Shown here one piece after another: positions 10,709-32,000 of a stretch of DNA of 32,000 nt. The stretch is taken from contig CP074575.1 of the NCBI GenBank assembly GCA_018394315.1, forward strand, positions 1,116,615 through 1,148,614, given 5' to 3'. Below the pieces are notes generated by a model, which searched no databases, was not told where the DNA came from, and worked only from the letters and a program-made list of their open reading frames with translations. Position 1 is the first letter of the stretch; each line of letters opens with the position of its first letter. The position numbers and the translations under genes were made by a program. The DNA comes from Mycoplasmatota bacterium (GTDB lineage: Bacteria; Bacillota_I; Bacilli_A; MAG-NZ).

Positions 10709-10718
10709 AGGATGAAAT

Positions 10719-11951
10719 ATGAATTTAAAAGATAAATTAGCAATATATGCAAAAATGATTGTTGAACAAGGTGTTGCATTAGAAAGGGGTCAAAAAGTAT
10801 TAATTAGAGCGTTTATAGATTCAATACAGTTAGTTAGATTAATTTCAAAAGAAGCATATAAGAATGGCGCAAGTAATGTTGTTGTAATATGGTCAGATGA
10901 TGAACTTGATAGAGATTTCGCATTCTTTTCTTCTGAGAATGATTTAGCTACCTATCCTAAATGGCAAAAAGAGATTTTCGATGATATCTTGGATTCTGGG
11001 GGTGTATCTATCAGTGTTAGGGCACCAAACTCTAGAATGTATGATGGAGTACCTAAAGATAGATTGTCTACTTTAACAAAAACTACTAGAACAGGATTTG
11101 CTAGTTTTTCTAGTGCAATTAGTTCCTCTGAAGTTAAATGGGTTGTAGTTAACGCTGTATCGAAGGCGTGGGCTACTCAAGTTTATCCAAGCTTGATAGT
11201 TGAGGATGCTTGCGAGAAACTATGGGATGATATTTTTTATTGTTGTAAACTAAATGAACCAAGTCCGCAAAAGGCACTTTCAAATCATGCTAGAAAGATT
11301 AATGAGACTGCTAAAAAAATAACTAAAAAACAATATAAAAAATTACTGTATGTTGGTCCCGGTACTGACTTAGAAGTGGTATTGCCAGAAAATCATCTTT
11401 TTGTAGGTGGTGGAAATATTGATGGAGATACTGTTCAAATGAGTAATATACCCACATATGAAATAGCATCTTTACCACATAAGTATGGTGTAAATGGTAG
11501 ATTATCCGCTACATTGCCACTTGTTTATAATGGAAATATTATTGAAAACTTCTGGTTTGAATTTAAAGATGGAAAAGTCATTGACTATGATGCAAAAGTA
11601 GGTAGAGACGCAATTGCAAGTATCTTAAGTATAGATGAAGGAGCAAGTTATCTAGGAGAGGTAGCGATTGTATCTCAAGATTCAGAAATAGCCTCTTTGA
11701 ATAAGCTGTTTTATAGTACATTATTAGATGAGAATGCAAGTTGCCATTTTGCATTAGGGTCAGCTTATCCTACATGTTTAGTTGGGGCAAAAGGGAAAAG
11801 TAAAGCTGAGCTAGAAAAACTTGGAGTTAACACTAGCATAACTCATGTGGATTTTATGGTAGGGTCATTTGAATTAGATATAATCGGTGTTTTTGAAGAT
11901 GGAAGCAAAGAGTTTATACTTAAAAACGGTGTGTTTTCAAATGAATTGTGA
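10719..11951 (+). CDS. M29-family aminopeptidase (AmpS/PepS/aminopeptidase T type)
   Basis: 410 aa. The N-terminus LAIYAKMIVEQGVALERGQKVLI and the C-terminal CHFALGSAYP ... THVDFM are characteristic of the thermophilic-metalloprotease M29 family. Confidence 0.85.
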   Translation: MNLKDKLAIYAKMIVEQGVALERGQKVLIRAFIDSIQLVRLISKEAYKNGASNVVVIWSDDELDRDFAFFSSENDLATYPKWQKEIFDDILDSGGVSISVRAPNSRMYDGVPKDRLSTLTKTTRTGFASFSSAISSSEVKWVVVNAVSKAWATQVYPSLIVEDACEKLWDDIFYCCKLNEPSPQKALSNHARKINETAKKITKKQYKKLLYVGPGTDLEVVLPENHLFVGGGNIDGDTVQMSNIPTYEIASLPHKYGVNGRLSATLPLVYNGNIIENFWFEFKDGKVIDYDAKVGRDAIASILSIDEGASYLGEVAIVSQDSEIASLNKLFYSTLLDENASCHFALGSAYPTCLVGAKGKSKAELEKLGVNTSITHVDFMVGSFELDIIGVFEDGSKEFILKNGVFSNEL

Positions 11952-14798: not shown

Positions 14799-15974
14799 AT
14801 GATTTCATTGGATCTAGAGAAAATTAAGCAACTAGAAACTCTACTTGAGAAGAGCAATGTAGATATGTATTTAGTTCTTTCAAGAGAGGACTCAGATATT
14901 ACAATGAGCCTATTTCTGGATGTTCATATAGTAGCACAAACAGCTATTATTTTTAGGCGTAATGGTAAGCATATAGTTCTAACTGGGGCTACTGATGCAA
15001 ATGCATATAGTAGCTTTGGCATCTTTGAAATCATTACAGTTGAAGATGACTTTTATCGCGAACTTGTTGAAATTATTGATAAGATTGAACCGAATAAAAT
15101 TGCTTTAAACATTTCCACTACTGATTATTTAGCCGATGGACTTACTATGGGGCAGTATCTGTGCTTAGAAAGTACATTAAGAAGTGATCGTCTTAAAGAA
15201 TTAGAAGTTTCAAGTGAAGATCTTTTAAACGAGATTAGATCGGTCAAGTCAGAGTATGAAATCAAATTGATCGAAAAAGCTGTGCAAATCACTTGTGATA
15301 TATATGATGAAGTACGTTCAGAAATTAGAGTAGGAATGAGTGAAACAGAGATTGGTGACTTGTTTGTAGCAGGATTAAAAAAATATGGCGTTATTAATGC
15401 GCTTGGTGGTAGCTACAACTATCCACTGGTTATGATTAATAGATGTGGTTTAGCTCATAGAGAACCTGTGAGTAGTTACGTGTTAGAAAAAGGAGATATA
15501 TTGATCTGTGACTTCAGTGTCATTTATGAAGGTTATTGCTCAGATATCGCAAGAAGCTTTTATGTTTTGAAGGATAATGAAAAAAGAGCTCCAAAGGATG
15601 TCCAAGATGCATTTGATACAACTGTTAAAGCTGTATCTAATATTATTAGTAACATGAAACCTGGATTAAAGGGGTATGAGATTGATAGTTTAGGGCGTAG
15701 TGTAATCGAAGCCGGAGGATATCCTACAATTAGACATTCAGCTGGACATCAACTAGGTAGGAAAGTTCATGATGGTGGAACACCACTATCTCCTTATAGC
15801 GAAAATAGACCAAGAACTATGAATAAAATAAGAGTCAATGAAGTTTATGCAATTGAACCAACAGTGATACAGGATAATGGACTTCCTAGTTTCATTGTTG
15901 AAGAAGATATTGTGGTAAGTAAAAATGGAGTAAGAGTCTTGAGTAGAAGACAAACAGAACTTTGGCTTATTTAA
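14799..15974 (+). CDS. M24B Xaa-Pro aminopeptidase/dipeptidase-like (group III, copy 1)
   Basis: 391 aa with canonical ligand pattern CDFSVIYEGYCSD, AGHQLGRKVHDGG, AIEPTV and EEDIVV. The start may instead be TTG 14808, which is 9 nt from GGGAG; ATG 14799 abuts the SD. Confidence 0.85.
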   Translation: MISLDLEKIKQLETLLEKSNVDMYLVLSREDSDITMSLFLDVHIVAQTAIIFRRNGKHIVLTGATDANAYSSFGIFEIITVEDDFYRELVEIIDKIEPNKIALNISTTDYLADGLTMGQYLCLESTLRSDRLKELEVSSEDLLNEIRSVKSEYEIKLIEKAVQITCDIYDEVRSEIRVGMSETEIGDLFVAGLKKYGVINALGGSYNYPLVMINRCGLAHREPVSSYVLEKGDILICDFSVIYEGYCSDIARSFYVLKDNEKRAPKDVQDAFDTTVKAVSNIISNMKPGLKGYEIDSLGRSVIEAGGYPTIRHSAGHQLGRKVHDGGTPLSPYSENRPRTMNKIRVNEVYAIEPTVIQDNGLPSFIVEEDIVVSKNGVRVLSRRQTELWLI

Positions 15975-16288: not shown

Positions 16289-17461
16289 ATGGGTAAATAT
16301 TGTCTTCAAAAAGAAAAAATCGATCAAACAAAAAAATATCTTAAAGAGAATGATATAGATTGTTGGTTGATAAAAACTAAAGAGGGCAGTGACCCGTGTA
16401 TGTCTCTTATTTTTGGTTTTACAGTAGTAGGAGAAGCAATAATGATTATCACTCAGAGAAAGACGTATTCTATTGTAAGCATCATTGATGCACAAGACTC
16501 AGAGGAATGTGGACTTTTTGATGAGGTTATTAAGTATGGTAAAGAGGGAATAAAAGAACATTTAATTAATTTGCTATCACAGATAAAACCGAAGAAAATA
16601 GCCATTAACTATTCAAAGGATAGTCATCTGTCTGATGGATTAACGGTAGGTAGTTACCGTAATTTGATGGATATGGTTGGTAGTGAGAGTTATGAATTTA
16701 TATCTAGTGAAATGTTTCTTCAAAGATTAAGAAGTATTAAATCAAAACAAGAAATCGAATACATTCAAAAGGCAATTGATTTAACTTTAGAAATATATGA
16801 TGTAGTCTTTACCAAGATAAGAAAAGGAATGTCGGAAATAGAAATAGGAAACTTGTTTATCGAAGAGATGAAAAGGTTAGGAGTTGTTAATGGAATTAGT
16901 AGAAAATTAACACCTCCGATTGTTATGAAGTGTAATATTGCTCATCGACCTCCATCTAACGCAATTATTGAAGGTGGGGATTATCTAATATTTGACTTTT
17001 CTGTTGATTATAAAGGTTACTGTTCTGACATAGCTAGAACTTGCTATGTTTTAAAAGATGGTGAAGAAAAAGCAAGTGAAGAAATGGATAGAGCCTTTAA
17101 AGTCATATATGAAGCTGTTAATAAAGCTGTAGATTCATTAAGGCCTGGAACATTGGGATTTGAAGTCGATAGAGTCGCTAGACAATATGTCGTTGATATG
17201 GGTTATCCTAATATAATTCATGCAGTAGGTCACCAAATTGGACGAAACGTCCATGATGGTGGAACTCTACTTGCGCCTGATTTGAAGAGATATAAAAAGG
17301 GATCATATGGTATAATTGAAGAGGGAATGGTATTTGCGGTTGAACCTACTATATTATATACGGAAGGTCCAGCGATCATTTCAGAAGAGAATGTTTTAAT
17401 TACAAACAATGGAGCAATATTTTTGAGCAAGAGGCAAGAATCTTTAGTACTTATAAAGTAA
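16289..17461 (+). CDS. M24B Xaa-Pro aminopeptidase/dipeptidase-like (group III, copy 2)
   Basis: 390 aa. Motifs FDFSVDYKGYCSD, VGHQIGRNVHDGG, AVEPTI and EENVLIT. GAGGGA SD. Confidence 0.85.
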   Translation: MGKYCLQKEKIDQTKKYLKENDIDCWLIKTKEGSDPCMSLIFGFTVVGEAIMIITQRKTYSIVSIIDAQDSEECGLFDEVIKYGKEGIKEHLINLLSQIKPKKIAINYSKDSHLSDGLTVGSYRNLMDMVGSESYEFISSEMFLQRLRSIKSKQEIEYIQKAIDLTLEIYDVVFTKIRKGMSEIEIGNLFIEEMKRLGVVNGISRKLTPPIVMKCNIAHRPPSNAIIEGGDYLIFDFSVDYKGYCSDIARTCYVLKDGEEKASEEMDRAFKVIYEAVNKAVDSLRPGTLGFEVDRVARQYVVDMGYPNIIHAVGHQIGRNVHDGGTLLAPDLKRYKKGSYGIIEEGMVFAVEPTILYTEGPAIISEENVLITNNGAIFLSKRQESLVLIK

Positions 17462-20026: not shown

Positions 20027-20038
20027 AAAGGTTTTTTT
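20013..20038. terminator. Bidirectional A/U-rich hairpin shared by convergent genes
   Basis: AAAAAAACCTT / AAGGTTTTTTT, 11-bp stem with only 2 G-C pairs. It contains the stop codons of both convergent genes, with A and T runs on either side. Confidence 0.4.
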
Positions 20039-21362
20039 AATATATAATATGTAATTTTTGTTGTCTACCACCAAGAAACTCGACTTTATTATTTATGAAT
20101 ACAACTTCTATTTCTTGACCATACATTATTATTTGATTATTCCAAGAGGGAACTTCCTCGCGAATATTTAATTCCATAGCGTATAGAGTATTATCGAATA
20201 ATTTATATTCACCCATTCCCTTAACAAATTTTTGATTTGTGAATGAACCAATAGTTGGACCAGGTCCATGTCCAAACAAGCCAATCGGGTGTGTATAAAT
20301 CATTGGTCTTTTGATACCTTTTCCTTTTGCAACAGTTAATGCATTTTGTAATATCTCATTTCCAGTCATACCAAGTTTAAAACTATCTGCTAATATGTTC
20401 TGTAAATCCATTGCTATATTATGTATGCCTTCAAGTTCCTTAATTAGCTGTTCATCGTTTTCACCCTTAACATATGCCATTTCTTGAACATCAGAACATA
20501 ATCCAGCATATTCAAATCCAAAATCACAGTGAAGCAAATCACCTTTTTTTATTACTTCTGAATCAGAATCAAGATGAGGGTGACCATTTCGTCTTATCCA
20601 AACAGTAGCGCTAAACCAGGGAATTCCATAAAGTTCCATTGCCCTTTCCATTAAGAAAAAACGAGCTTGACCTAATGTGGTTTTACCTGGGGTAATAACT
20701 TTGCGTGAATAACATTCTAAGATTATTTCTCGTGTTAATTTAACGATTGATTTAACAACATCAAGCTCAAGCTCAGTTCTAGTTTCAAGCCACCTTAAAG
20801 CCATATTTTCTCCAGAACTAATCTTATCATGATGTATATTGTCAATACAGTCTAGTAAGAAATCATAATTCGTTTTGCTTAATCCATCTGAGAACGGTGT
20901 AAGTGTGGAGACGTCAATAGAGATTTTTTCTGGATTTATTTCGTTCACAATTCTCTTAATACATGCTTTCTCGTCCTCAACTGGAAGACTTCTAATCATA
21001 TCTAAATCATAACCTGATTGAAATGTGTTATAAAACATTTCAAAATCAAATAAAGGCGGTTTTAGAAGTATGGGAGTATAAAAATTAGCGATTGTGAAAT
21101 CGGGCTTTGAGACTATGTATCGTTTTAACTCATTGTCTTGATAAACAAAGATAAAAATAGCTTTTCTTCTTGCATGAAAAAAACTACTAGGTAACAATGA
21201 GCGAATAGTAGGACCTTCGTTATATTCGTCTCCAATAACTATCCACATGTCTGTATCTGTTTCTTTCATTAGTTCTGGTAAAAGTTCTTCAAGTCTATGT
21301 TTTAATAATTTATCTCTTAATTCAAATTGGTCTTGTAAATTTATCACGTGTTTTTTATTCAT
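20037..21362 (-). CDS. M24-family metallopeptidase, long divergent subtype (group I, copy 3)
   Basis: 441 aa, colinear with the 5473 and 8062 products. Shared motifs include MWIVIGDEYNEGP, RWLETR, LLHCDFGFEYAGLCSD, YTHPIGLFGHGPGP, YAMELN and GQEIEV. GAGGGAG SD on the minus strand. Confidence 0.8.
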   Translation of the reverse strand: MNKKHVINLQDQFELRDKLLKHRLEELLPELMKETDTDMWIVIGDEYNEGPTIRSLLPSSFFHARRKAIFIFVYQDNELKRYIVSKPDFTIANFYTPILLKPPLFDFEMFYNTFQSGYDLDMIRSLPVEDEKACIKRIVNEINPEKISIDVSTLTPFSDGLSKTNYDFLLDCIDNIHHDKISSGENMALRWLETRTELELDVVKSIVKLTREIILECYSRKVITPGKTTLGQARFFLMERAMELYGIPWFSATVWIRRNGHPHLDSDSEVIKKGDLLHCDFGFEYAGLCSDVQEMAYVKGENDEQLIKELEGIHNIAMDLQNILADSFKLGMTGNEILQNALTVAKGKGIKRPMIYTHPIGLFGHGPGPTIGSFTNQKFVKGMGEYKLFDNTLYAMELNIREEVPSWNNQIIMYGQEIEVVFINNKVEFLGGRQQKLHIIY

Positions 21363-21743
21363 ATGTCTTATGCTCCCTCAATTATTATTTCGTTTTATAT
21401 TGTAAATAATGATCATAATACCTTGAAAAGACTCCAAAAGATAGTAATATTAATTCACTAGAAAGTTACTTTAATTATACCATATTATTCCTTTAAAAAG
21501 AGCACTGGAATCAGTGATTCTTTAGCTTAAAATCAGCAGCATAAGTATTTATTGTATTACGAAAACTATTATTAAAAAGAAGTGGTAGAATTAACTATCT
21601 TTCGAAAAATTAGAAATAAAATTTGAAATTTAAAATGGCATCTTAGATACATTTTGACTGTTTGTGCAATATGAAAAGAATTGTGCAAATAGTTGTTATT
21701 GTCTATTGCTAAGTTCTATTAGATAATTAATGAGGAGAGTACT

Positions 21744-23672
21744 ATGAAAACAAGAGAGAATGATATAATATATTTCATATTAGAAAAAGAGGTAGTTTCC
21801 TTTGAAGTTTTACTTAATCAACTTAATGTTTCCAAAAGAACATTATACTATGATATAGCCAGTATTAATAAAAAGTTGGATGGAATATGTACAATTATTA
21901 AGGTGAATAAGAAACTCCGTATTGTTGGAGATATTTCAAAATTAAAGTTTGTACTAAGAGAAGATGATAATAATAATTATGAAAAATACTTAGATTATAA
22001 TTTTAGAAAAGAATTTATATTAGATGAACTATTAAAGAATAAAAATATGAGTTTAGATTCACTATGTAAAAATATGCTTGTAAGTAAATCTACGATTGTT
22101 CAAACAATAAATAGATTGAAGGAAGAGCTATTAACAGATGATATTAATTTGACATATGAAAAGGGGTATCATCTTACTGGTGATGAGATAAAAATAAGAG
22201 ACTTATACTTAACCATAAATATGTCGCCAGATATAAACAAAAGTGTTAATGACGGAACTTATTTGTTTGATTCCCTTTTCAATCTTAAGTTGACTGACAA
22301 TTCTAAATGTTTGTTAAGTGAGTTTATTGCATTTTTGCAATCAAGATATGATCAGCAGCATATTTTATCATCTTATTCCATATATTCAGATGCTATAGAG
22401 TTGAGTTACTACAATGAAGTCGATATGCTCTTTGATGAAGAAATTAGCGAATTCGAAAAAGCTTATGTTTCAGCATATATCAGTTCATTACCTAGTCTAA
22501 ACTCTACAATAGAAGAGAATAGAATTAATCTACTAGTTGATAAGTTAATTGATCAACTTGAACAAAAACTTTCAATAGTTATTGAGAATAAAACTGAGTG
22601 TAGAGAAAGTATTGCAAGGCACTTATATTCATCTTTCAATAGAATAAAGTATCGATTTCCAGTTTTTAATCCTTTGCTAAAGGAAATAAGAATGAAATAT
22701 AAATCGATATATATAATAACAGAAATGATCTTTAGAAAGAATTCCCTATTTCCAGAATTTGAGAAAATAAGGGATGAAGAAATTGCTTTTGTAGTTTCTT
22801 ATTTAGGGGCCTACATATATAAGGAGAATATAGAAGATAATAAATCTCTCAAAACTGTAATCGTTTGTCCAAATGGATTAACTGTATCAAAAACGATTGA
22901 ATATCAAGTACAAAGATATTTTCCTTCCATAGAAATAGTTGCCTCAATTCCAATATCACAAATAGATAATTTAGATAGGGAGTTTGACTTTATAATTTCT
23001 ACGATTAAGTTGGAAGGTTATGAAAATGTAATTGTTGTAAATCCTCTTCTAAGGAAATATGACTTCGATCAAATAAAGAAAAGAATATCTACTCAAGATT
23101 ATTGTTCAAGACATACTGATATAGAGGAAGTTATAAAGACTGTTAGGAAGTACGCAAATATAACTAATGAAAAAGGTTTAAGGCAAGAATTATATAATTC
23201 AATTTATGAGATAGATAATAGAGGGGGATATCCAATGTTAAAGGAATTACTTACCAAAAATAGAATTCAAATACTAGATGAGATTACTAATTGGCAAAAG
23301 GCAATTGAAGTTGCTGCTCATCCTTTGTTAAATGAAGGTGTAATAGAAGAGCGATATATCGAGGCTATGGTGGAGAGCGTTATCAAGTATGGTCCATATA
23401 TTGTTCTGACAGACAAATTTGCGCTTGCTCATTCAAGACCTGAGAGTGGTGTAAATAAATTATCAATGTCATTACTTAAATTAAACAAACCAGTAGATTT
23501 ACTTGGTAAAGAGGTCAATTTGATAGTAGTGTTAGCGGCTACTGATAATAAATCACATTTAGAAGCTTTAGCATCTTTATCAGAATTAATGATGGAAAAA
23601 GAAAATATTGAATCTATTATCAATTCTGATACGAAAGATAAAATTTTAGAGTTGATAAATATTTATTCTTAG
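21744..23672 (+). CDS. PRD-containing PTS-controlled transcriptional regulator (MtlR/LicR/ManR-like: HTH, PRD, EIIB-like, EIIA-2 domains)
   Basis: 642 aa. N-terminal winged HTH (VSKRTLYYDIASINKKL) and a second HTH-like segment. Mid-region is PRD-like. EIIB-like Cys loop VIVCPNGLTVS. The C-terminal ~140 aa is a PTS EIIA type-2 pattern (FALAHSRPE ... LIVVLAATD). Confidence 0.85.
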   Translation: MKTRENDIIYFILEKEVVSFEVLLNQLNVSKRTLYYDIASINKKLDGICTIIKVNKKLRIVGDISKLKFVLREDDNNNYEKYLDYNFRKEFILDELLKNKNMSLDSLCKNMLVSKSTIVQTINRLKEELLTDDINLTYEKGYHLTGDEIKIRDLYLTINMSPDINKSVNDGTYLFDSLFNLKLTDNSKCLLSEFIAFLQSRYDQQHILSSYSIYSDAIELSYYNEVDMLFDEEISEFEKAYVSAYISSLPSLNSTIEENRINLLVDKLIDQLEQKLSIVIENKTECRESIARHLYSSFNRIKYRFPVFNPLLKEIRMKYKSIYIITEMIFRKNSLFPEFEKIRDEEIAFVVSYLGAYIYKENIEDNKSLKTVIVCPNGLTVSKTIEYQVQRYFPSIEIVASIPISQIDNLDREFDFIISTIKLEGYENVIVVNPLLRKYDFDQIKKRISTQDYCSRHTDIEEVIKTVRKYANITNEKGLRQELYNSIYEIDNRGGYPMLKELLTKNRIQILDEITNWQKAIEVAAHPLLNEGVIEERYIEAMVESVIKYGPYIVLTDKFALAHSRPESGVNKLSMSLLKLNKPVDLLGKEVNLIVVLAATDNKSHLEALASLSELMMEKENIESIINSDTKDKILELINIYS

Positions 23673-23684
23673 GGAGGTGAAAGA

Positions 23685-23963
23685 ATGAAAATACTAGCTG
23701 TATGCGGATTTGGTGTTGGGTCATCAATGGTTTTGAAGATGACAATTGATAAGGCTTGTCGCCAACTTGGAGTAGATGCTGAGGTAGAGAATACCGATCT
23801 AACTTCAGCTAGGGGTGTCAGATGTGATGCAATATTTACATCATTTGAACTTGCGGAAGAATTAGCAAGTTCGGTAAAAGTGCCTCTATATCCAATAAAA
23901 AAATATATGGATTTAGAGGAAGTGAAAGAATCAGTTGAAAAACTAATTAGGAGGGAAATTTAA
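23685..23963 (+). CDS. PTS EIIB component, ascorbate/lactose-type (UlaB/SgaB-like)
   Basis: 92 aa with N-terminal phospho-Cys loop MKILAVCGFGVGSS. GGGAGG SD. Confidence 0.85.
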   Translation: MKILAVCGFGVGSSMVLKMTIDKACRQLGVDAEVENTDLTSARGVRCDAIFTSFELAEELASSVKVPLYPIKKYMDLEEVKESVEKLIRREI

Positions 23964-25216
23964 TGACATTTATTATTGACAACATTTTTAGAAATCCACC
24001 AATTTTGTTAGCGTTGATCGCTGCATTAGGATTAATATTACAAAAGAAATCAATTGGAGACGTTATCAAGGGTTCACTACTAGCCGCACTAGGTATGTAT
24101 ATTTTACAAAAGGGTGTTGGGCTACTAGTAACTGCAATTTTACCTGTTAACATTTTAGTTCAAGGTATGAGTGAAGGCGGAAATACTCAAGGATTAGCGG
24201 ATGTATTTACAGCTGAGTTCGGAGGGCAAGTCGGTATGGCTATGCTGATTGGACTTGCTATTCACTTGTTAATTGCTAGATTTACTAAATTTAAAGTAAT
24301 TTTCTTAACTGGTCACTTCCTATGGTGGTTCCCGTTTATCTTTATCGCTGCAGGTGTTGAAGCGGGTCTTACTGGAGCAGTATTAGTTGGTTTTGGTGCT
24401 ATTACATCAGCATTATACTGGTCAATTATGCCTTGGATACTACGCAAGTACGTATCAGATGTTACTGGTGACGACTCGTTCACTTTAGGACATCCTTCTG
24501 GAATTTTATCATTGATTTCAGGGAAAATTGCAAAAGTATTCGGTAACAAAGAAAAATCTACAGAAGACTTAAATCTGCCAAAAGGATTATCTTTCTTTAA
24601 AGAAGTATCAATCACTGGTGGAATCACACTGTTCTTAATGTTCTTAATCTTAGGATTAACAGTAGATGGAGCATTTGCAGATGTTGGTAAACCTCTTTTC
24701 TTCTATGCTTTTGATCAAGGATTAATGTTCGGTGGAGGATTAATTATATTACTACAAGGTGTTAGAATGTTAGTAAATCAAATTATTCCTGCATTCCAAG
24801 GTATCTCAGAAAAATTAGTACCAAAAGCAATTCCAGCATTAGATTGTCCAATTTTATTTAATTATAAACCAAATGCTGCAATGATAGGATTTATTGTTGC
24901 AATGATTTTATCAACAGTATTAGTATTAATTTCAAATGCTACTGGTTTATTTGGAGTGATTTTAATTCCTTTAGTAATCACAAGTTTCTTTGAGTGTGGT
25001 ACAGCCGCAGTAATTGGAGAAGGACAAGGTGGATTAAAAGGTGCAATTGTAGGAACATCTGTTGCTGCAGTAGCGATGGTTGCTTTTGTTGGGATTTCAG
25101 CAATAGTATATTCGACTACAATCCAAGACTGGCTACTTATCTTCGGTGGTAATGGATTATCGTTCTTTGGATCAATTGCTAAGTTCTTTGCTGATTTATT
25201 TGCGATGATATTTTAA
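23963..25216 (+). CDS. PTS EIIC component, L-ascorbate family (UlaA/SgaT-like)
   Basis: 417 aa, polytopic, colinear with E. coli UlaA. Shared motifs: LTGH, EDLNLPKGL, LLQGVRMLVNQIIPAFQGISEKLVPKAIPALDC, YKPNA. Confidence 0.85.
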   Translation: MTFIIDNIFRNPPILLALIAALGLILQKKSIGDVIKGSLLAALGMYILQKGVGLLVTAILPVNILVQGMSEGGNTQGLADVFTAEFGGQVGMAMLIGLAIHLLIARFTKFKVIFLTGHFLWWFPFIFIAAGVEAGLTGAVLVGFGAITSALYWSIMPWILRKYVSDVTGDDSFTLGHPSGILSLISGKIAKVFGNKEKSTEDLNLPKGLSFFKEVSITGGITLFLMFLILGLTVDGAFADVGKPLFFYAFDQGLMFGGGLIILLQGVRMLVNQIIPAFQGISEKLVPKAIPALDCPILFNYKPNAAMIGFIVAMILSTVLVLISNATGLFGVILIPLVITSFFECGTAAVIGEGQGGLKGAIVGTSVAAVAMVAFVGISAIVYSTTIQDWLLIFGGNGLSFFGSIAKFFADLFAMIF

Positions 25217-25220
25217 TTAA

Positions 25221-25955
25221 ATGAATTTTAAATATATAGAAAAGATTCAAAAGGTTCTCAAGGAAATTGATGATTTAGAGAAAGATAATATTAGTGAAGC
25301 GATAAATTTATTTGTTGATGCAATTATAAAGAAGAATAACACTTTTGTTTTCGGTGCAAGTCATGCGGGAATTATTTCAGAGGAATTATTTTACCGCGCA
25401 GGGGGACTTGCAGTAATTAATCCAATATTTGAGCCATCTATAATGTTAAATGTAAGACCAATTACCTCTACATCAAAGATGGAAAGATTAGAAGGGTACG
25501 GTACTCTAATAGCTAATAAGACACCAATTACTAAAGGGGATGTTCTGTTGGTTCATTCTGTATCTGGTCGAAATCCTGTTACGATAGAACTTGCGATAAG
25601 GGCAAAAGAAATGGGAGCAAAAATAGTTGCAATTACCAACATAAAGTATTCTTCTTCAGTAGAATCAAGACATTCATCTAAACTAAAACTGATGGATGTA
25701 GCAGATTTAGTTATTGACAATCATGGAGAACTTGGAGATGCGTGTATCGAGATTGATGGATTAGAACAGAAGGTATCTCCTACTTCCACAGTAGTAAGTG
25801 CTTCAATTGCAAACACAATAGTTTCAGAAGTTGCTAGATTGTTAATGGAAAAGGGCATCACACCACCAATTTTCTTTAGTGCGAATATCGATGGTGGAGA
25901 TAAACACAATGAATTAATTTTTGAAAAGTACAAAGATATGATTCATTATCTTTAA
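25221..25955 (+). CDS. SIS (sugar isomerase) domain protein, UPF0309-like
   Basis: 244 aa. Has a SIS phosphosugar-binding pattern (FVFGASHAG ... LVHSVSGRN ... AITN). No clear SD; the start is 4 nt after the EIIC stop. Confidence 0.7.
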   Translation: MNFKYIEKIQKVLKEIDDLEKDNISEAINLFVDAIIKKNNTFVFGASHAGIISEELFYRAGGLAVINPIFEPSIMLNVRPITSTSKMERLEGYGTLIANKTPITKGDVLLVHSVSGRNPVTIELAIRAKEMGAKIVAITNIKYSSSVESRHSSKLKLMDVADLVIDNHGELGDACIEIDGLEQKVSPTSTVVSASIANTIVSEVARLLMEKGITPPIFFSANIDGGDKHNELIFEKYKDMIHYL

Positions 25956-25977
25956 AACGAGGGCAACCTCGTTTTTC
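25954..25977 (+). terminator. Intra-operon rho-independent hairpin (partial terminator/attenuator)
   Basis: AAAACGAGG / CCTCGTTTT stem with GCAA tetraloop and a U-run, starting in the SIS stop codon, 38 nt before nagA. Confidence 0.6.
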
Positions 25978-26014
25978 AAAGCCAATAATTAATCAAGTAT
26001 AGAGGTGTAAAAAG

Positions 26015-27160
26015 ATGAAAAATCAGGACATTATTCTGAAAAATGGTAGATTAGTTACTGAAAATGGTATAGTAGATAACTCTTACGTTGTTGCAAAAGA
26101 TGGAAAAATTATTGAAATAGGAACATATTATTCTAAAGATGATGGAGTTGACCTACAGGGGAATTTTATTTTACCAGGCTTTATAGATCAACACACACAC
26201 GGTGGATATGGATGTGACTTTTCATCAAAAGAAGAGGTTATGAATTTTAGTGAAAATTTAATTAAAGAAGGGGTAACCTCTTATCTCCCTACAATTATGA
26301 CTTTACCTACTAAAAGAATCAAAGAAACAGTAGATATAATTTATAATTGTCGTAATTCACAAAGGGGAAGTAACGTATTGGGTGTACATTTAGAGGGGCC
26401 ATTCATCTCGTCTAAATATAAAGGCGCTCAAAATGAAGACTATATAATCCCTCCGAATTTTGAAATCCTAAAGGACATCTTTAAGGGTAAAGAAGATTTT
26501 CGTAAAATATTAACATATGCACCTGAAGAGGCAACTTTAGAGTTCACAAGTCTAGTTAATGAATTAGGGATAGTACCAAGTGTGGGGCATTCTAATGCTG
26601 ATTTAGAAACAATAAGAAGTCATATGAATAGTGGCCTTAAGTCGATAACTCATTTTCAAAATTCTCATTCTCCACATCACCATAGAGAGCCAGGAATAAC
26701 TTCTGCAGGCTTCTTATTTGATATTTATACCGAACTGATTGTAGATGGAATTCACATAAACAAGGATATTGTCAAAATGATTTATAAGATTAAAGGAAGA
26801 GACCGAATTATTCTTGTTACTGATTCAATTCATGTTAAGGGATTGGATGATGGGAAATACTGTTTATCTGGACAAGAAGTAATCAAAAAGTCTAATGAAG
26901 TCAGACTAAGTTCTGGGTCTTTATCAGGTAGTATTCTAAAAATGAACGACGCTATCAAGAATATGATGAAATTTACTGGTTGTTCTATCAATGATATTAT
27001 GATAATGGCTTCAAAGAATCCTGCTGAATTGCTAAATGTGAATAAAGGAAAAGTAGAAGTAGGGTTTGATGCTGATATAACCATATTGGATAGTGAGTTT
27101 AATGTTGAAATGGTAATTGTTGGTGGAATAGAGAAATATGGTGTATACAATGAAAATTAA
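26015..27160 (+). CDS. nagA: N-acetylglucosamine-6-phosphate deacetylase
   Basis: 381 aa. Motifs LPGFIDQHTHGGYG, GVHLEGPF, SVGHSNA, ITHFQN and LVTDS, matching the NagA amidohydrolase pattern. Confidence 0.9.
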   Translation: MKNQDIILKNGRLVTENGIVDNSYVVAKDGKIIEIGTYYSKDDGVDLQGNFILPGFIDQHTHGGYGCDFSSKEEVMNFSENLIKEGVTSYLPTIMTLPTKRIKETVDIIYNCRNSQRGSNVLGVHLEGPFISSKYKGAQNEDYIIPPNFEILKDIFKGKEDFRKILTYAPEEATLEFTSLVNELGIVPSVGHSNADLETIRSHMNSGLKSITHFQNSHSPHHHREPGITSAGFLFDIYTELIVDGIHINKDIVKMIYKIKGRDRIILVTDSIHVKGLDDGKYCLSGQEVIKKSNEVRLSSGSLSGSILKMNDAIKNMMKFTGCSINDIMIMASKNPAELLNVNKGKVEVGFDADITILDSEFNVEMVIVGGIEKYGVYNEN

Positions 27161-27893
27161 GATTTTAAAAAACTATAATGAAGTAATTAATGAATCGTAT
27201 AAAGTATTGAGTGAATACTTAACAAAGAAGCAAGATCTTGTTTTGGGACTAGCTACTGGTGAAACAATGATTGGCTTATACAGTAAAATGGTCGATGATC
27301 ATAAGAAAAGCGGTATTGATTACAGCAGGATTAAAACATTTAATCTAGACGAATATTATGGACTTCAAAGAAACCATGCTCAAAGTTACTATCACTACAT
27401 GAACAAACATCTTTTTAGTAAAGTTAACATTAATGAAAAAAACATAGTGTTTCCAAATACATTAAGCAATGTTGATGCTTCTTGCGAAAGGTATAATTTG
27501 GCTTTAGAAGAAAACAAAATTGACTTACAAATTCTAGGAATTGGGAGTAACGGTCACATTGGTTTCAATGAGCCTAAAACAAGTTTTAAGTCTAAGACTA
27601 GATTAGTAGAATTGGACAAAACTACAAGAGTAGATAATTCCAGATTTTTTAATGACCTAGAAGAAGTACCTACTCATGCAATAACAATGGGTATTGAGAA
27701 TATTCTTAGTGCAAAAAAAATAATATTGATTGCTTCTGGAAGCGAGAAATCGAAGGCTATAAGTAAAGCAATTGATGGACCAGTAACAGAATTAGTACCT
27801 GCATCAATATTACAAAGACATCCAAATGTTGAAGTGATAATTGATATAGAGGCAGGAAAGAATTTGAAAGGGAGTATGAACTATGTTAAATAA
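27150..27893 (+). CDS. nagB: Glucosamine-6-phosphate deaminase
   Basis: Motifs LGLATGETM, FNLDEY and LGIGSNGHIGFNEP. I chose the ATG 27150 start (MKIKIL, matching typical NagB N-termini). In-frame ATG 27138 is the alternative. Confidence 0.88.
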   Translation: MKIKILKNYNEVINESYKVLSEYLTKKQDLVLGLATGETMIGLYSKMVDDHKKSGIDYSRIKTFNLDEYYGLQRNHAQSYYHYMNKHLFSKVNINEKNIVFPNTLSNVDASCERYNLALEENKIDLQILGIGSNGHIGFNEPKTSFKSKTRLVELDKTTRVDNSRFFNDLEEVPTHAITMGIENILSAKKIILIASGSEKSKAISKAIDGPVTELVPASILQRHPNVEVIIDIEAGKNLKGSMNYVK

Positions 27894-28161
27894 GAGATTT
27901 AGAGTACTAGATGAGTTAGGAATCCATGCTCGACCTGCTTCCTTACTTGTTGCAAAGGCTCAGTGTTTCGAATCAACTATTACAGTTACTTTTAATGAAA
28001 AAACTAAAGACTTAAAATCACTACTTGGACTTATGACAATGGTTATAAAGCTTGATGATACCTTTACAATATCATGTGAAGGAGCTGATGAAATTGTTGC
28101 AATGGAGTCTATTGTTAAGTTACTTATTAGTGAGAGAATTTGTGAGGAGTGTCAATTATGA
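27883..28161 (+). CDS. ptsH: HPr-type phosphocarrier protein
   Basis: 92 aa with His15 in GIHARPAS and Ser46 in DLKSLLGLM. AAGGGAG SD. The stop overlaps the ptsI start (ATGA). Confidence 0.85.
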   Translation: MLNKRFRVLDELGIHARPASLLVAKAQCFESTITVTFNEKTKDLKSLLGLMTMVIKLDDTFTISCEGADEIVAMESIVKLLISERICEECQL

Positions 28162-29849
28162 AAGTTATAAATGGCATACCAGCAAGTGGTGGCATAAGTA
28201 TTGCTAAAATATTTAAAATCTTTCCTAAAAATCTTGAACTAGTAAAAGTAAACAATTGTGACGTAGACTTGGAGTCTGAACGATTGAAAGATGCGGTATT
28301 AAATGCTAAAGTAGAAATCCTAGAAATAGTCGAAGACGTTATAGCGAAAGCGGGAGAAGCAAAAGCTATGATATTTAGAGCTCATATATTAATGCTTGAA
28401 GATCCTGAGTTCATTGGGGAAGTATACAGTTTAATTGAATCGGAAAATATTAATGCAGAGTTTGCTCTTGATGTAGTAAGTAAGAATTTAATAAGAATAT
28501 TTGAGGGATTAGACAGTCAAGTATTTAAAGAAAGAGCTATTGATGTTAAGGATGTTTCAGATAGAGTTATGAAATACTTAACTAATAGTATTGATGAAGG
28601 TTATCAATTTACTGATGATGTTATTATAGTGACTAATGATTTAACTCCATCAGAGTCTATAAGGATGGATAAAAAATATGTTAGAGGATTTATACTTAAT
28701 GTTGGTGGAAAAACAAGCCATGCAGCGATTCTTGCAAGAGCGTTAGAAATTCCTTCCGTTGTAGGAACAAAGGTAGCATTCGATGAGGTTGAAGATGGAG
28801 ATTTAGTGATTCTTGATGGAGATGAAGGAATTGTAATAGTAAATCCTAACGAAGAGCAGATAGAAAAATACCGTAAACTTAAAGAAAATAAAAAGGAAGA
28901 TTTCTCAGAATTTTTTAATAAAGAAGCAATTACTTTAGATAAAAAGAAAATTAAGATTTATGCTAATATAGCATCTAATGAAGAGATGAATAATGTATTA
29001 AAGAATGGCGCAGAGGGAATTGGACTATTTAGAACAGAATTTATCTTTATGGGACGTAATACTTTTCCTTCTGAGGATGAACAGTTCTCTATTTATAAAA
29101 GTGTGCTTGAAGCAATGAATGAGTCAACTGTAATTATTAGAACATTAGATATTGGTGGCGATAAACAACTACCTTATTTAAAAGAAATTCCAGAAGAAAA
29201 TCCGTTTTTAGGACTAAGGGCTATTAGACTATGTCTAAATGAAGTAGGTTTATTTAAAACACAACTTAGGGCCTTACTTCGAGCTAGTGCATTTGGGAAT
29301 CTTAAAATAATGTTTCCTATGATAACGGTAGTAGAAGAGATGACTGAAGCAAAGAAGGTGCTTGAAGAAGTGAAATCTGAGTTAATTAAAGAAGGGTTTA
29401 ATCTAGGTGAAATTGGGGTTGGAATAATGATAGAAACACCATCCTCAGTTATGTTGGCTGATAAACTAATCAAACATGTAGATTTCTTCAGTATAGGTAC
29501 AAACGATTTAGTTCAATATACAATGGCTGCAGATAGAATGAATGAAAATGTATCTTACTTATATCAGCCTAGTAATCCCGCTATATTAATGATGATAAAG
29601 AAGGTTATTGATATAACTCATAATCATAATAAGTGGACTGGAATTTGCGGGGAAATAGCAAGTGACTTAGAAATGACACCATTATTGATTGGATTAGGTG
29701 TAGACGAATTAAGTGTTATATCTAGTAGTGTTCCTAAACTGAAGAAAAGAATTGGTAACCTTGATTCAAAAGAATGCCAAAAACTATCACAACAAGCTTT
29801 GAATCTATCTAGTTCAAATGAAGTTATTGATTTGCTAAAAAGGTTCTAA
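28158..29849 (+). CDS. ptsI: Phosphoenolpyruvate-protein phosphotransferase (PTS Enzyme I)
   Basis: Motifs GGKTSHAAILARALEIPSVVG, GLFRTEF, FSIGTNDLVQY and ICGE. I place the start at ATG 28158 (GAGGAG SD 8 nt upstream), not GTG 28149. Confidence 0.93.
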   Translation: MKVINGIPASGGISIAKIFKIFPKNLELVKVNNCDVDLESERLKDAVLNAKVEILEIVEDVIAKAGEAKAMIFRAHILMLEDPEFIGEVYSLIESENINAEFALDVVSKNLIRIFEGLDSQVFKERAIDVKDVSDRVMKYLTNSIDEGYQFTDDVIIVTNDLTPSESIRMDKKYVRGFILNVGGKTSHAAILARALEIPSVVGTKVAFDEVEDGDLVILDGDEGIVIVNPNEEQIEKYRKLKENKKEDFSEFFNKEAITLDKKKIKIYANIASNEEMNNVLKNGAEGIGLFRTEFIFMGRNTFPSEDEQFSIYKSVLEAMNESTVIIRTLDIGGDKQLPYLKEIPEENPFLGLRAIRLCLNEVGLFKTQLRALLRASAFGNLKIMFPMITVVEEMTEAKKVLEEVKSELIKEGFNLGEIGVGIMIETPSSVMLADKLIKHVDFFSIGTNDLVQYTMAADRMNENVSYLYQPSNPAILMMIKKVIDITHNHNKWTGICGEIASDLEMTPLLIGLGVDELSVISSSVPKLKKRIGNLDSKECQKLSQQALNLSSSNEVIDLLKRF

Positions 29850-29912
29850 AGTAGATTGAATTATAAAGAATTATTATTTTTAGATTTGTAACTCTAAGAG
29901 GATAAAAAATAG

Positions 29913-29953
29913 GAAACGAAGGCCAAAATTATGCTAATGGCTTTCGTTTTTCT
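29913..29953 (+). terminator. Rho-independent terminator after ptsI
   Basis: GAAACGAAGGCC / GGCTTTCGTTT(T) stem with a 14-nt loop, then a TTTTTCT tail. Confidence 0.6.
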
Positions 29954-30093
29954 GGCTCTCTATCAAGGGTGGGGGTCAAATAAGTAATGATTAAGTACCG
30001 TTCATTTTTGAGTGATACTTTTTTGTACACAATAATGCTGCGAGAGGATGTCTAGAATTTGTGTGTTGGTACAAAATCTTATTTCTGAACGTA

Positions 30094-30294
30094 TTAAAAT
30101 TTCTGATTCCGTAAGACATGAACTTTATCAGTCAATCCGTTACACCTTGGACAATTGTGTTTCATTCGAATTCTAGATAAATTGACCAATAGATACTTAG
30201 AATCGAATGAATATGAATCAATCGCAATAAAATCACCTTTTATGTTAAGTAATGATTTTAAATCCTTATTTGATATGCTAGAATTATTGTGCAT
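30094..30294 (-). pseudogene. Truncated ISL3-family transposase (N-terminal zinc-finger fragment only)
   Basis: 66 aa ending prematurely. It has the LLNIKGDF...(~30 aa)...CPRCNG..KVH architecture typical of ISL3 transposase N-termini. No catalytic domain follows. Confidence 0.65.
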
Positions 30295-30375
30295 AATAAA
30301 ACTCCTTTCGATGTTGGTTTGGTCGCTTACATTATCGGATTTTATTATGCACTTTTTATTTATTTCACAATTCAG

Positions 30376-30407
30376 AAAAAAAACATGGGGATTTACTTAC
30401 CCCCATG
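30376..30407 (-). terminator. Rho-independent terminator downstream of the minus-strand membrane-protein gene
   Basis: On the minus strand: CATGGGG, a ~10-nt loop, CCCCATG, then TTTTTTTT. It starts 53 nt after the stop at 30460. Confidence 0.55.
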
Positions 30408-30459
30408 ATAATTATAGAATCATAGTTAGTTCTTTTTCACCCTTTATATAAATCCTATT

Positions 30460-31119
30460 TTAGAAGGCGTTATTATTTTTAAGTGATTTCCTTTTAGAAA
30501 TCCCTAAAATCATCCCTAAGCATATTCCAAGTATAGAAGCGAATAAAACTTGATATTCTTCTGGTAATAAAAATGTAATTGTATGAGCAGGTATCCAGAA
30601 GAACGGAATTGTTATAAGGATCACAAATGATACAAATTGACTCCAATCAATCGACTTAACCGTTGACGCTAAGTTATGATATTCTTTTAAAGTTTTTAAA
30701 TCAATCACCTTATCTGTGATTCTGTGAAAAGCCATCATAGTTGGAGCAAATGTTAAATTCATTATTAGGCTTACAAAGAATGCGTGTGCCAATTTTGAAC
30801 CATCGAATGGTAAAATCTCATTTAACATTAAATAGGTTACTCCACTACTATAGATACCGAAGATTAAGACGATTACCATACCTATCAATCCCCAAATTAT
30901 TGCCTTTTTAAGAAAACCTAGAGGAATACTCCATTTCTTATTTTTGATTCTCCCCCCGATAAGGTCACCAATTGAAGCTAATACAAAGAATTTTAAGAAT
31001 CCACCAATCAATTTATACCTTGCATTGAAGGATATGAATATATTTCTTGTATACTCGATTGATAAGAAGATTCCAATGCTTAATAAAACTAATCCAATAA
31101 TAATGTCACCTTTTTTCAC
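30460..31119 (-). CDS. Integral membrane protein of unknown function
   Basis: 219 aa with about six hydrophobic segments. GGAGGGA SD on the minus strand before the ATG. I do not recognise a family. Confidence 0.6.
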   Translation of the reverse strand: MKKGDIIIGLVLLSIGIFLSIEYTRNIFISFNARYKLIGGFLKFFVLASIGDLIGGRIKNKKWSIPLGFLKKAIIWGLIGMVIVLIFGIYSSGVTYLMLNEILPFDGSKLAHAFFVSLIMNLTFAPTMMAFHRITDKVIDLKTLKEYHNLASTVKSIDWSQFVSFVILITIPFFWIPAHTITFLLPEEYQVLFASILGICLGMILGISKRKSLKNNNAF

Positions 31120-31687
31120 TATTTCCCTCCATGATTACTTTTTTTAATCAATATACTTATACAAATATCTTAACACATAAAATAACATTTTGACTAGATG
31201 GTTTGGTTCTAGTGCACATATTAGTAGGTAAAAGGTACTAGCATTACTTTTTAAACAAGCTTTTATTTTCATTCTCTTATTCGGCTTCATTACTAAAGAG
31301 AAGATGATAGTTTTTAGAGGGAAAGATTGATATTCTAACACGTATATAATCTTGATTATGATATCAGAAAGAATATGAAAATTATCTGTCCAATACTAGA
31401 AAACTTCTTTATTTGTCTAGTTATATTTAATATCGGATGTTTTGCCCTTACTTTACTAAGTGTAAGAGCTACTGTATTAATTAATATTGTATCATTTGGT
31501 AGTATTTAGTAATATTACGTTGTATACTTTTAATAGAACATTTTCAGAAAGTGTTATAGTAACTTTAAATGAAATTACTTTGAAGAAGAATTCACATCAT
31601 GAAATTACCGACAAGAATAGGATTGAACCTTGAATGGATTATGATAAATATAATCAATAAAGAGATTTAAGTGAGGAGTGTGGAAAT

Positions 31688-32000
31688 TTGAATTATTGGG
31701 CAAAAAAATTGTTTTCTTATAATAAGATTTATGATCAAAAGGGAAGCGAAGATTTATTTTTAGAGTCGATAAAAGAGTCGATTTTACATCATAAAGAAAA
31801 TTGTCAAATGTATAAAGATTTACTAAAAAGTGAAAACTTCGATGTAGAATGTCTTAAATCAATTAATGATCTGTATAAAATACCAACAATACCTGCAAAC
31901 TTCTTGAAGTATCACGAAGTTTTAAGTGTAAAGAAAGAAGATATAATAGTTAATGCGACTTCTTCAGGTACTTTTGGACAAAAAAGCCAAGTATTTCTAG
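31688..32000 (+). CDS. LuxE-family acyl-protein synthetase / adenylate-forming enzyme, 3'-partial (runs off window)
   Basis: Absent from the ORF track because it is truncated by the window end. TTG start 9 nt after a GAGGAG SD. The translation (...ILHHKENCQMYKDLL...DLYKIPTIPANFLKYHEVL...ATSSGTFGQKSQVFL) is colinear with the LuxE N-terminus (HY.HC.EYR ... DIP.FPTSVFKF ... TSSGT.G.KSQV). Confidence 0.75.
   Translation, partial: MNYWAKKLFSYNKIYDQKGSEDLFLESIKESILHHKENCQMYKDLLKSENFDVECLKSINDLYKIPTIPANFLKYHEVLSVKKEDIIVNATSSGTFGQKSQVFL

Follow-up and report, generated by a model that had tools for sequence, protein, structure and literature searches.

In Escherichia coli, the murQ-murP locus couples a phosphotransferase system (PTS) for N-acetylmuramic acid (MurNAc) to the etherase that acts on MurNAc-6-phosphate (MurNAc-6-P), under the control of the regulator MurR. 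The etherase, MurQ, removes the C2 proton from open-chain MurNAc-6-P, eliminates D-lactate at C3 and rehydrates the resulting enal to N-acetylglucosamine-6-phosphate (GlcNAc-6-P). The UlaA/SgaT family of PTS permeases, also called the L-ascorbate (L-Asc) family, has to our knowledge essentially one proven substrate. Here, we have analysed a 32,000-nucleotide (nt) stretch of contig CP074575.1 from a Mycoplasmatota bacterium (hereafter the window), in which the genes at 21744-27893 place a permease of the UlaA family next to an SIS protein of the UPF0309 family, followed by the GlcNAc-6-P deacetylase NagA and the glucosamine-6-phosphate (GlcN-6-P) deaminase NagB. We show that the permease and the SIS protein are encoded together in a cassette that is conserved well beyond the window, and we propose, tentatively and with a little less than even confidence, that the locus is self-contained and serves both the PTS uptake and the catabolism of an N-acetylated amino sugar other than N-acetylglucosamine (GlcNAc), one that has a free reducing end and feeds GlcNAc-6-P catabolism.

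The sole characterised member of UPF0309 is NagS (SCO4393), described in 2025 as a GlcNAc-6-P dehydratase of Streptomycetaceae that forms 6P-chromogen I (PMC12680351). NagS also converts N-acetylmannosamine-6-phosphate (ManNAc-6-P); it binds GlcNAc-6-P and ManNAc-6-P and does not bind N-acetylgalactosamine-6-phosphate (GalNAc-6-P), GlcN-6-P, glucose-6-phosphate (Glc-6-P) or fructose-6-phosphate (Fru-6-P), while 6-phosphogluconate binds tightly in its active site and inhibits it (PMC12680351). NagS groups beside the MurQ etherases, and its true orthologues, of at least 58.7% identity, are found only in Streptomycetaceae, adjacent to dmdR1; a Clostridium homologue (from C. amylolyticum, 33% identical to NagS) showed negligible dehydration of GlcNAc-6-P (PMC12680351). 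NagS thus carries out the dehydration half of MurQ chemistry. A published precedent for an EIIA domain that is borne on a regulator is the SP2129-30/SP2131 system of Streptococcus pneumoniae, which, like the locus studied here, has an ascorbate-type EIIB and EIIC, no free EIIA, and a co-transcribed PRD regulator that bears the EIIA; unlike this locus, it is described with neither SIS nor nag genes, and its predicted substrates are pentoses, a prediction that is unverified (PMC3302838).

An earlier reading of the window, made without database searches (the sequence-only reading), had placed six genes at 21744-27893, all on the + strand, and Pfam and NCBIfam matches confirmed this. It overlooked the genes for HPr and Enzyme I (EI) that follow nagB, in reading frames that overlap, as well as a hairpin right after the SIS stop codon and the absence of a separate EIIA gene. 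The genes, and the hairpin at which the gene block ends, are listed below; loci of relatives are labelled L001 and so on, and residues are numbered after NagS for the SIS protein and after E. coli UlaA for EIIC.

21744-23672, + strand: PRD/Mga activator fused to EIIA, 642 residues, with HTH_11, Mga, PRD and PTS_EIIA_2 domains
23685-23963, + strand: PTS EIIB of the UlaB/GatB type (PF02302), active-site Cys7
23963-25216, + strand: PTS EIIC of the L-ascorbate (UlaA/SgaT) family, distinct subclade (PF03611, EIIC-GAT, E 3.5e-91)
25221-25955, + strand: UPF0309/PRK02947 SIS_2 protein, NagS-like, 244 residues (PF13580; NF002805)
26015-27160, + strand: NagA, GlcNAc-6-P deacetylase (TIGR00221, 336 bits against a cut-off of 226)
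27150-27893, + strand: NagB, GlcN-6-P deaminase (TIGR00502, 256 bits against a cut-off of 237); the open reading frame (ORF) opens at 27138
27883-28161, + strand: HPr, with His15 and Ser46 present; overlaps nagB by 11 nt
28149-29849, + strand: PTS Enzyme I (TIGR01417, 670 bits); overlaps ptsH by 13 nt
29912-29956, + strand: terminator-like hairpin with a 14-base-pair stem (29912-29951), then a T-rich tail; end of the gene block

Both NagA and NagB exceed the curated equivalog cut-offs. The start of nagB was probably mis-set by the ORF caller, as homology begins from the ATG at 27150 and not at 27138. Taken protein by protein, the window is closest to Izemoplasmatales or to uncultured Bacillota, with identities of 60-80%.

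A search of a large protein collection with the SIS protein gave 1,635 clustered homologues at E <= 1e-10. Scanning one genome per GTDB species with an SIS profile gave 80 loci, and the gene contexts of the closest metagenomic relatives were examined as well, about 85 related loci being covered overall; neighbouring genes, identified by our own ORF calling and by BLAST against the window proteins, were counted in 75 loci, post-SIS hairpins and SIS residues in 74, and EIIC residues in 59 cassette-linked orthologues. In 64 of the 75 loci, the EIIC gene is immediately 5' of the SIS orthologue, and these loci are spread over Clostridia, Bacilli, Erysipelotrichia, Coriobacteriia and Izemoplasmatales. 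This pairing bears out the suggestion of the sequence-only reading that the SIS protein is a partner enzyme of the PTS. Since a hairpin and a T-run follow within 120 nt 3' of the SIS gene in 50 of the 74 loci, the SIS gene is normally the last gene of the cassette and encodes its only enzyme. The conserved unit is one of four genes, (regulator and/or EIIA)-EIIB-EIIC-SIS, with the SIS protein as its dedicated enzyme, and adjacency to nagA or nagB is found in a minority of loci.

This organization resembles that of E. coli murQ-murP, where a compact set of regulator, PTS permease and one SIS-superfamily enzyme yields GlcNAc-6-P, which goes to NagA and NagB that are usually encoded elsewhere. It differs in that the permease is of the L-Asc family and not of the Glc family as in murP, the enzyme is of UPF0309/SIS_2 and not of the MurQ family, and control lies with a PRD activator or a GntR/UTRA protein in place of RpiR/MurR. 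Three regulatory designs were found: a PRD regulator fused to EIIA (the window and Clostridia), a PRD regulator with a free EIIA (Alkalibacterium, Pediococcus), and a free EIIA in loci that are flanked by a GntR/UTRA gene (Amphibacillus and its relatives, and many Izemoplasmatales). An HPr gene lies 3' of the cassette in L009, L015 and L092, and genes for HPr and EI in L093, so that in the window's clade this EII is accompanied by the general PTS proteins, perhaps because it is the main PTS that they serve. In three loci of Bacilli (L041, L063 and L066), a CutC-family gene (PF03932) is immediately 5' of the free EIIA gene, and CutC could be a functional partner of the cassette. Outside the PTS context, the neighbours of the SIS gene in L050 and L034 (PHP, MatE, DUF1846, a Cys/Met pyridoxal-phosphate enzyme and a sugar ATP-binding cassette (ABC) transporter) were uninformative.

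The SIS protein scores 298 bits against NCBIfam NF002805/PRK02947, for which the cut-off is 135, and is thus a member of UPF0309. Its only full-length relatives in the PDB are the structural-genomics entry 3CVJ and NagS/SCO4393 (9EOL, 9F7O, 9F7V), with E-values of 2e-49 against 3CVJ and 6e-48 against 9EOL; other SIS proteins were matched in the PDB profile search over the SIS core only. Its AlphaFold model (pLDDT 71) superimposes on NagS and 3CVJ with template-modelling (TM) scores of 0.81-0.84 (0.84 for NagS). Outside UPF0309, the nearest structural neighbour is MurQ of Haemophilus influenzae (1NRI, TM 0.60, level with GmhA), MurQ structures ranging from 0.55 to 0.60. No NCBIfam MurQ model was matched at E-values up to 0.001, and the profile search of the PDB listed no MurQ.

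With 34% identity to NagS (9EOL) and a low-GC context like that of Bacillota and Izemoplasmatales, the protein falls outside the NagS orthologues as their authors define them. It shares with NagS the family and fold, and all its catalytic residues: H53, R64, E94 and D179, which are essential in NagS, S91 and N228, which are important, and S119 and S121, which bind phosphate (PMC12680351), are all present in the window protein and do not vary among the 74 PTS-linked orthologues, and nearly all NagS residues that contact GlcNAc-6-P are identical as well. Unlike NagS, however, the clade is linked to a PTS and carries S54A and G227A; like G52S and G90T, these changes are fixed in the clade and specific to it, and they lie at or beside the ligand contacts. 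Judging from these residues, the SIS enzyme very probably binds a GlcNAc-6-P-like molecule and applies C2-carbanion chemistry to it, with an outcome unlike that of NagS. The sequence-only reading had left a range from isomerase to MurQ-type etherase to deglycase; NagS, which was not known to that reading, has now been characterised (PMC12680351), and by analogy this precedent likely narrows the chemistry to the NagS/MurQ type, for which we propose deprotonation at C2 and elimination and hydration at C3, as in MurQ. The negligible dehydration of GlcNAc-6-P by the Clostridium homologue fits an enzyme whose stable product is GlcNAc-6-P.

The EIIC is homologous over its full length to the UlaA/SgaT family (PF03611), aligning to the UlaA structure 4RP8 with an E-value of 1.5e-41 over residues 3-391, at 29.8% identity to E. 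coli UlaA. Like UlaABC of E. coli, the locus has an EIIC of this fold and EIIB and EIIA of the same families; unlike UlaABC, its EIIA is fused to the regulator. We took the roles of the binding-site and mechanistic residues from the structure papers (PMC6048161). Neither the window's EIIC nor any of the 59 cassette-linked EIICs departs from UlaA at the elevator hinge glycines G58 and G286 or at R288; in the pocket, H135, H194, D314 and F362 are unchanged in all 59, and I358 is also kept. In contrast, the polar contacts to ascorbate are replaced: every one of the 59 carries Q139W, Q195P and S363E, I136 has become M or F, and the HP1 pair T86/Y87 is lost. The EIIC therefore does not preserve the ascorbate site (T86, Y87, H135, I136, Q139, H194, Q195, D314, I358, F362), and at least five of ten mappable ascorbate-contact residues are altered, three of them invariantly. 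Family scans found no UlaD, UlaE, UlaF or UlaG encoded in the whole 32 kb, and none of ulaD/E/F/G is among the recurrent neighbours in the 75 loci. The EIIC is thus a member of the UlaA family that, by its altered residues and the lack of ula catabolic genes, is very unlikely to carry ascorbate; the sequence-only reading, which had pointed to this lack and away from ascorbate, is supported on both counts.

That the cassette is connected to amino sugars comes from its neighbours. A validated NagA or NagB gene adjoins it in 11 of the 75 loci, compared with about 0.9 expected for 17-kb loci in a 3-Mb genome. The enrichment is about 12-fold, with a binomial P of ~1e-9, or ~1e-5 when only five independent events among 25 lineages are counted, and at least five different arrangements of the nag genes occur. 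In the window and in L012, a nagA-nagB tandem is 3' of the cassette; the loci of Izemoplasmatales have a divergent nagB together with a GntR/UTRA gene upstream of the cassette, and a convergent nagA downstream of it; the Salibacterium locus (L086) has nagA and a GntR gene, both convergent to the cassette; and in L007, a close metagenomic relative, the order is cassette-NagB-GH18. In L093 (9910-13612), HPr, EI, a PIG-L family (LmbE-type) deacetylase and NagB come directly after the cassette, which on family assignment would be the functional set of the window with a non-homologous deacetylase, and the PIG-L protein may be an analogue of NagA. The amino-sugar link that the sequence-only reading had drawn from nagAB stands, recurring independently in other lineages, although nagAB is not part of the conserved unit.

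The PIG-L protein of L093 matches no NCBIfam model. NCBIfam NF002557 describes a 653-residue NagB-like protein, probably a fusion of NagB-like and LmbE parts. A 64-residue match to NagA in L063 was spurious and was dropped.

GntR/UTRA regulators flank the cassette in 12-13 loci, and a bona fide NagE-type GlcNAc PTS (TIGR01998, 637 bits) lies nearby in eight, which argues that the cassette takes up a relative of GlcNAc and not GlcNAc itself. The remaining recurrent neighbours, namely the glycoside hydrolase (GH) families GH2, GH18, GH38 and GH123, RpiR regulators and CutC, point to glycan foraging. In five loci of Clostridium spp. (L030 at 9-10741, L026, L035, L040 and L043), the SIS orthologue is found in an ABC-transporter operon that is free of PTS genes, in the order ABC solute-binding protein, MurK-like kinase, UPF0309 paralogue, DUF6259 protein, a secreted protein of 1,744 residues, SIS orthologue. 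The kinase gene overlaps that of the UPF0309 paralogue, and its best PDB match is the MurNAc/GlcNAc kinase MurK (8ZO3, E 3e-24). The paralogue is 30% identical and is without E94 and N228; the secreted protein combines type I phosphodiesterase, purple acid phosphatase and metallophosphoesterase domains; and DUF6259 gave no informative match in the PDB. Such an operon could serve in scavenging a cell-wall polymer (teichoic acid or the peptidoglycan linkage), and the MurK-like kinases of these five loci hint at a MurNAc-like substrate.

In Clostridioides difficile (L001, 9069-13982), an ABC transporter and a gene of GH123, the beta-N-acetylgalactosaminidase family, are 3' of the cassette, and a cellulose-synthase-like cluster comes next. 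The alternative Clostridium locus encodes homologues of the binding protein and permeases of this transporter.

From the gene content, family memberships, residue conservation and neighbourhood statistics, we infer the following for the substrate, the SIS reaction, the transport role of the regulator's EIIA and the transcript structure. EI and HPr would pass phosphate to the EIIA domain of the regulator and on to EIIB, and the UlaA-family EIIC would import the sugar, which is phosphorylated at C6. Acting on the open-chain 6-phosphate, the SIS enzyme would remove the C2 proton next to the C1 aldehyde, and either elimination and re-addition at C3 or reprotonation would then release GlcNAc-6-P. 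NagA would deacetylate GlcNAc-6-P, and NagB would convert GlcN-6-P to fructose-6-phosphate and ammonia. The cassette, from regulator to SIS, would probably be induced by its own PRD activator at a TGTGCAA repeat, and nagA-nagB-ptsH-ptsI would be expressed through read-through of the post-SIS hairpin, from an internal promoter, or both. The steps that follow GlcNAc-6-P are those of nagAB-nagR with nagP, and of gamAP, in Bacillus subtilis, where GlcNAc-6-P is converted through GlcN-6-P to Fru-6-P and with which many of the related loci share GntR/UTRA control; unlike the present cassette, the nagP and gamAP systems use other transporter families and have no SIS step.

A SIS reaction that ends at GlcNAc-6-P would explain the pairing of PTS and SIS, the recurrence of NagA (or PIG-L) and NagB, and the missing GlcNAc-6-P dehydration in the Clostridium homologue. 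Our preferred candidate for the substrate is a 3-O-substituted GlcNAc such as MurNAc; the SIS protein would then act as an etherase in the manner of MurQ, and the cassette would be a counterpart of the MurP/MurQ pair that is not orthologous to it. The second candidate is N-acetylmannosamine (ManNAc), with the SIS protein as a ManNAc-6-P 2-epimerase. It is possible, though we lean somewhat against it, that an L-Asc-type PTS with a UPF0309 enzyme forms a widespread new route, either replacing MurP/MurQ or serving another nutrient (chromogen I, or a 3-O-substituted or 2-epimeric N-acetylhexosamine). If MurNAc replacement were true, the wall-less Izemoplasmatales-like bacteria could only be feeding on the peptidoglycan of other cells.

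Several observations weigh against this proposal. The neighbouring glycoside hydrolases (GH2, GH18, GH38 and GH123) are heterogeneous. In the survey of the 75 loci, neither the canonical peptidoglycan-recycling genes nagZ, amiE and murR nor the sialic-acid genes nanA, nanE and nanK recur beside the cassette, so that its neighbours single out neither MurNAc nor ManNAc. Nor would S363E, which is invariant in the pocket of EIIC, obviously favour an anionic sugar such as MurNAc. The Clostridium homologue that was assayed (PMC12680351) may lie outside the PTS-linked clade. About 85% of the cassettes have no nagA or nagB within six genes, so that the link is a statistical and not a universal one, and nagA-nagB-ptsH-ptsI may be housekeeping genes of a small genome that stand beside its main PTS. 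Finally, a terminator-like hairpin lies between the SIS gene and nagA of the window, so that the two may not be co-regulated.

The last two points would also be expected if the imported compound were a nitrogen-free sugar, lactone or sugar acid, whose 6-phosphate the SIS enzyme isomerises or dehydrates to a central intermediate, and if nagAB-ptsHI were adjacent through genome compactness. HPr or EI accompany the cassette where nag genes are missing (L009, L015, L092), and the four-gene cassette would be self-sufficient if the SIS product were, for example, Fru-6-P. Tight binding of 6-phosphogluconate in NagS indicates that sugar-acid phosphates fit the fold; NagS, however, binds neither Glc-6-P nor Fru-6-P (PMC12680351). 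The 12-fold excess of NagA/NagB over chance in at least five arrangements, the pairing of NagB with a non-homologous PIG-L deacetylase in L093, and the frequent GntR/UTRA and NagE-type neighbours speak against this reading, as does the invariance of nearly all the residues with which NagS contacts GlcNAc-6-P. We consider a nitrogen-free substrate unlikely.

Chromogen I, or 2-acetamido-2,3-dideoxy-hex-2-enofuranose, is a spontaneous product of GlcNAc, and also of GlcNAc that is 3-O-substituted at a reducing end; alkaline pH in particular favours its formation. Both chromogen I and ascorbate have a five-membered unsaturated ring with a dihydroxyethyl tail. It is conceivable that the cassette salvages chromogen I: EIIC would import it, with phosphorylation at C6, and the SIS enzyme would run the NagS reaction backwards, hydrating 6P-chromogen I to GlcNAc-6-P. 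The resemblance to ascorbate would explain why a transporter of the L-Asc family was recruited, the sole known reaction of the enzyme family interconverts 6P-chromogen I and GlcNAc-6-P (PMC12680351), and many of the hosts are alkaliphiles (Alkaliphilus, Amphibacillus, Alkalibacterium and Gracilibacillus alcaliphilus, with 3CVJ from Bacillus halodurans), an excess that may, however, reflect phylogeny. Microscopic reversibility would require that the enzyme also dehydrate GlcNAc-6-P, which the Clostridium homologue does negligibly, and chromogen I has no documented role as an environmental nutrient, which makes its salvage improbable.

Equally doubtful is that GlcNAc or glucosamine (GlcN) is itself the substrate, with the SIS protein as an accessory, whether a NagS-like overflow valve, a signalling enzyme, or a second GlcN-6-P isomerase or deaminase. 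In Izemoplasmatales, nagB and nagA enclose the cassette and no further amino-sugar transporter is seen nearby, and the SIS protein has the same catalytic residues as NagS. The SIS protein would, however, be superfluous for GlcNAc catabolism, yet its pairing with EIIC is near-obligatory; the eight loci with a bona fide NagE-type PTS, the Clostridium homologue without NagS activity, and the failure of NagS to bind GlcN-6-P also speak against it.

An ordinary L-ascorbate PTS, as the NCBIfam name would have it, is extremely improbable: the EIIC aligns with UlaA over its full length and narrowly passes the cut-off of the 'ascorbate IIC' model NF006919 (393 bits against 380), but it falls far below that of the E. 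coli-UlaA-type model NF009549 (208 bits against 890), its ascorbate contacts are altered as described above, and ulaD/E/F/G are missing.

Two further substrates were considered and appear unlikely. For a glycated amino acid and a deglycase, the association with peptidases is not recurrent in relatives, and chemistry of the NagS type needs a free anomeric centre; for N-acetylgalactosamine (GalNAc), GalNAc-6-P is not bound by NagS, and genes of the tagatose pathway are not recurrent.

The regulator of the window has the domain order HTH_11-Mga-PRD-EIIB(Gat)-like-EIIA, with Cys375 in a VIVCPNG motif and an EIIA domain of the Mtl/Asc type at residues ~497-642, with His563 in an AHSRPE motif. By its domains and its putatively phosphorylatable His and Cys residues, it is a PRD-containing activator of the MtlR/LicR/ManR type. 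The operon has no separate EIIA gene, the C-terminal domain of the regulator being the sole EIIA. This domain is 40-54% identical to the free-standing EIIAs of 140-170 residues in the cassettes of Bacilli and Izemoplasmatales, and it matches structures of stand-alone EIIAs with an E-value of 7e-28. From this similarity and the retained active-site His563, we infer that it also serves as the EIIA for transport, a layout for which the pneumococcal system is a precedent.

Three elements bear on how the genes are transcribed:

21662-21688, + strand: direct repeat TTGTGCAA-N11-TTGTGCAA, 5' of the regulator gene; candidate operator of the PRD/Mga activator
25954-25976, + strand: hairpin AAAACGAGG-GCAA-CCTCGTTTT, then T; begins inside the SIS stop codon
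25921-25949, + strand: promoter-like TTGAAA-17-CATTAT, in the 3'-terminal part of the SIS gene; 9 of 12 consensus positions

The same direct repeat is found ~86 and ~66 nt before the start codon of the regulator gene in L007, L009, L092 and L093, and in degenerate form in L091; across the window and the former four, it reads TGTGCAA-N12-14-T(G/A)TGCAA. It may therefore be the operator of the PRD/Mga activator. Just 5' of the repeat, relatives carry a palindrome like a catabolite-responsive element (cre), for example ATGTAAGTGTTTCCAT, and the window has none. A scan of the whole window with Rfam gave no matches, with neither a riboswitch nor a ribonucleic antiterminator (RAT) element.

The hairpin after the SIS gene folds with a z-score of -3.15 against shuffles, and it occurs at the same position and with the same core in L012, L007, L009, L092 and L093. 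In L012, the stem is identical to that of the window and the loop is different; in L007, L092 and L093, the stem is GGACGAGT/ACTCGTCC, with a T-rich tract after it; and L009 has an imperfect form. Between the two types of stem, the five core pairs (ACGAG/CTCGT) are unchanged and three pairs are altered on both sides. The built-in terminator scan overlooked this hairpin, probably because of its A-tract/T-tract pairing, and it was found by reading and folding the sequence. The conservation of its pairing looks like that of a terminator or attenuator that closes the cassette transcript. Since it lies between the SIS gene and nagA, control of all the genes by a single regulator is not established, and the view of the sequence-only reading that all are under one PRD regulator is doubtful. 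The promoter-like sequence at 25921-25949 is a weak candidate for an internal promoter of nagA-nagB-ptsH-ptsI. As both the PRD activator and the uptake of the inducer need HPr and EI, ptsH and ptsI cannot, on general PTS principles, rely solely on a PRD-controlled promoter, and some independent expression of nagA-nagB-ptsH-ptsI is expected.

In the literature that we searched (on UPF0309, the gene combination, utilisation of chromogen I, and the PTS of Izemoplasma), no substrate was found to be assigned to this combination of genes, in agreement with the sequence-only reading. The component families are already known and the downstream NagA/NagB route is textbook knowledge; what that literature leaves unassigned, besides the substrate, is the pairing of an L-Asc permease of remodelled pocket with a NagS-like UPF0309 enzyme, and its recurrent tie to amino-sugar genes. 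If the proposal is true, it would define the physiological function of the UPF0309 enzymes outside Streptomyces and provide the first non-ascorbate specificity in the UlaA family, and a systematic misannotation as 'PTS ascorbate transporter subunit IIC' would be corrected. The locus turns the question that the NagS paper raises about homologues outside Streptomycetaceae, which that study found to be inactive on GlcNAc-6-P, into a testable hypothesis for both families. Hosts of the cassette include gut and pathogenic Clostridia (C. difficile, C. tertium), lactic acid bacteria and sediment Izemoplasmatales, so a new route for scavenging amino sugars would bear on the turnover of host glycans and of cell walls (necromass).

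Upstream of the operon, at 18-21362, lies a large, unrelated island for peptide utilisation. It holds an Opp-type ABC transporter (18-5469), M29 and M20 peptidases, two class I/II aminotransferases, RidA, a YheO-like PAS/HTH regulator, an ORF of 455 residues without a Pfam match (5473-6840), and six paralogous M24 metallopeptidases (6851-8029, 8062-9384, 9524-10708, 14799-15974, 16289-17461 and, on the minus strand, 20037-21362), an unusual number for a single locus. The start of the M20 peptidase ORF (11887-11951) was probably mis-set, being a GTG that gives a 65-nt overlap with the preceding gene. On the 3' side of the operon, 29957-32000 is gene-poor and AT-rich, with short ORFs that have no family matches; a minus-strand ORF of 219 residues (30460-31119) gave a sub-threshold match to Mpv17/PMP22 only, and a strong minus-strand terminator lies at 30384-30407.

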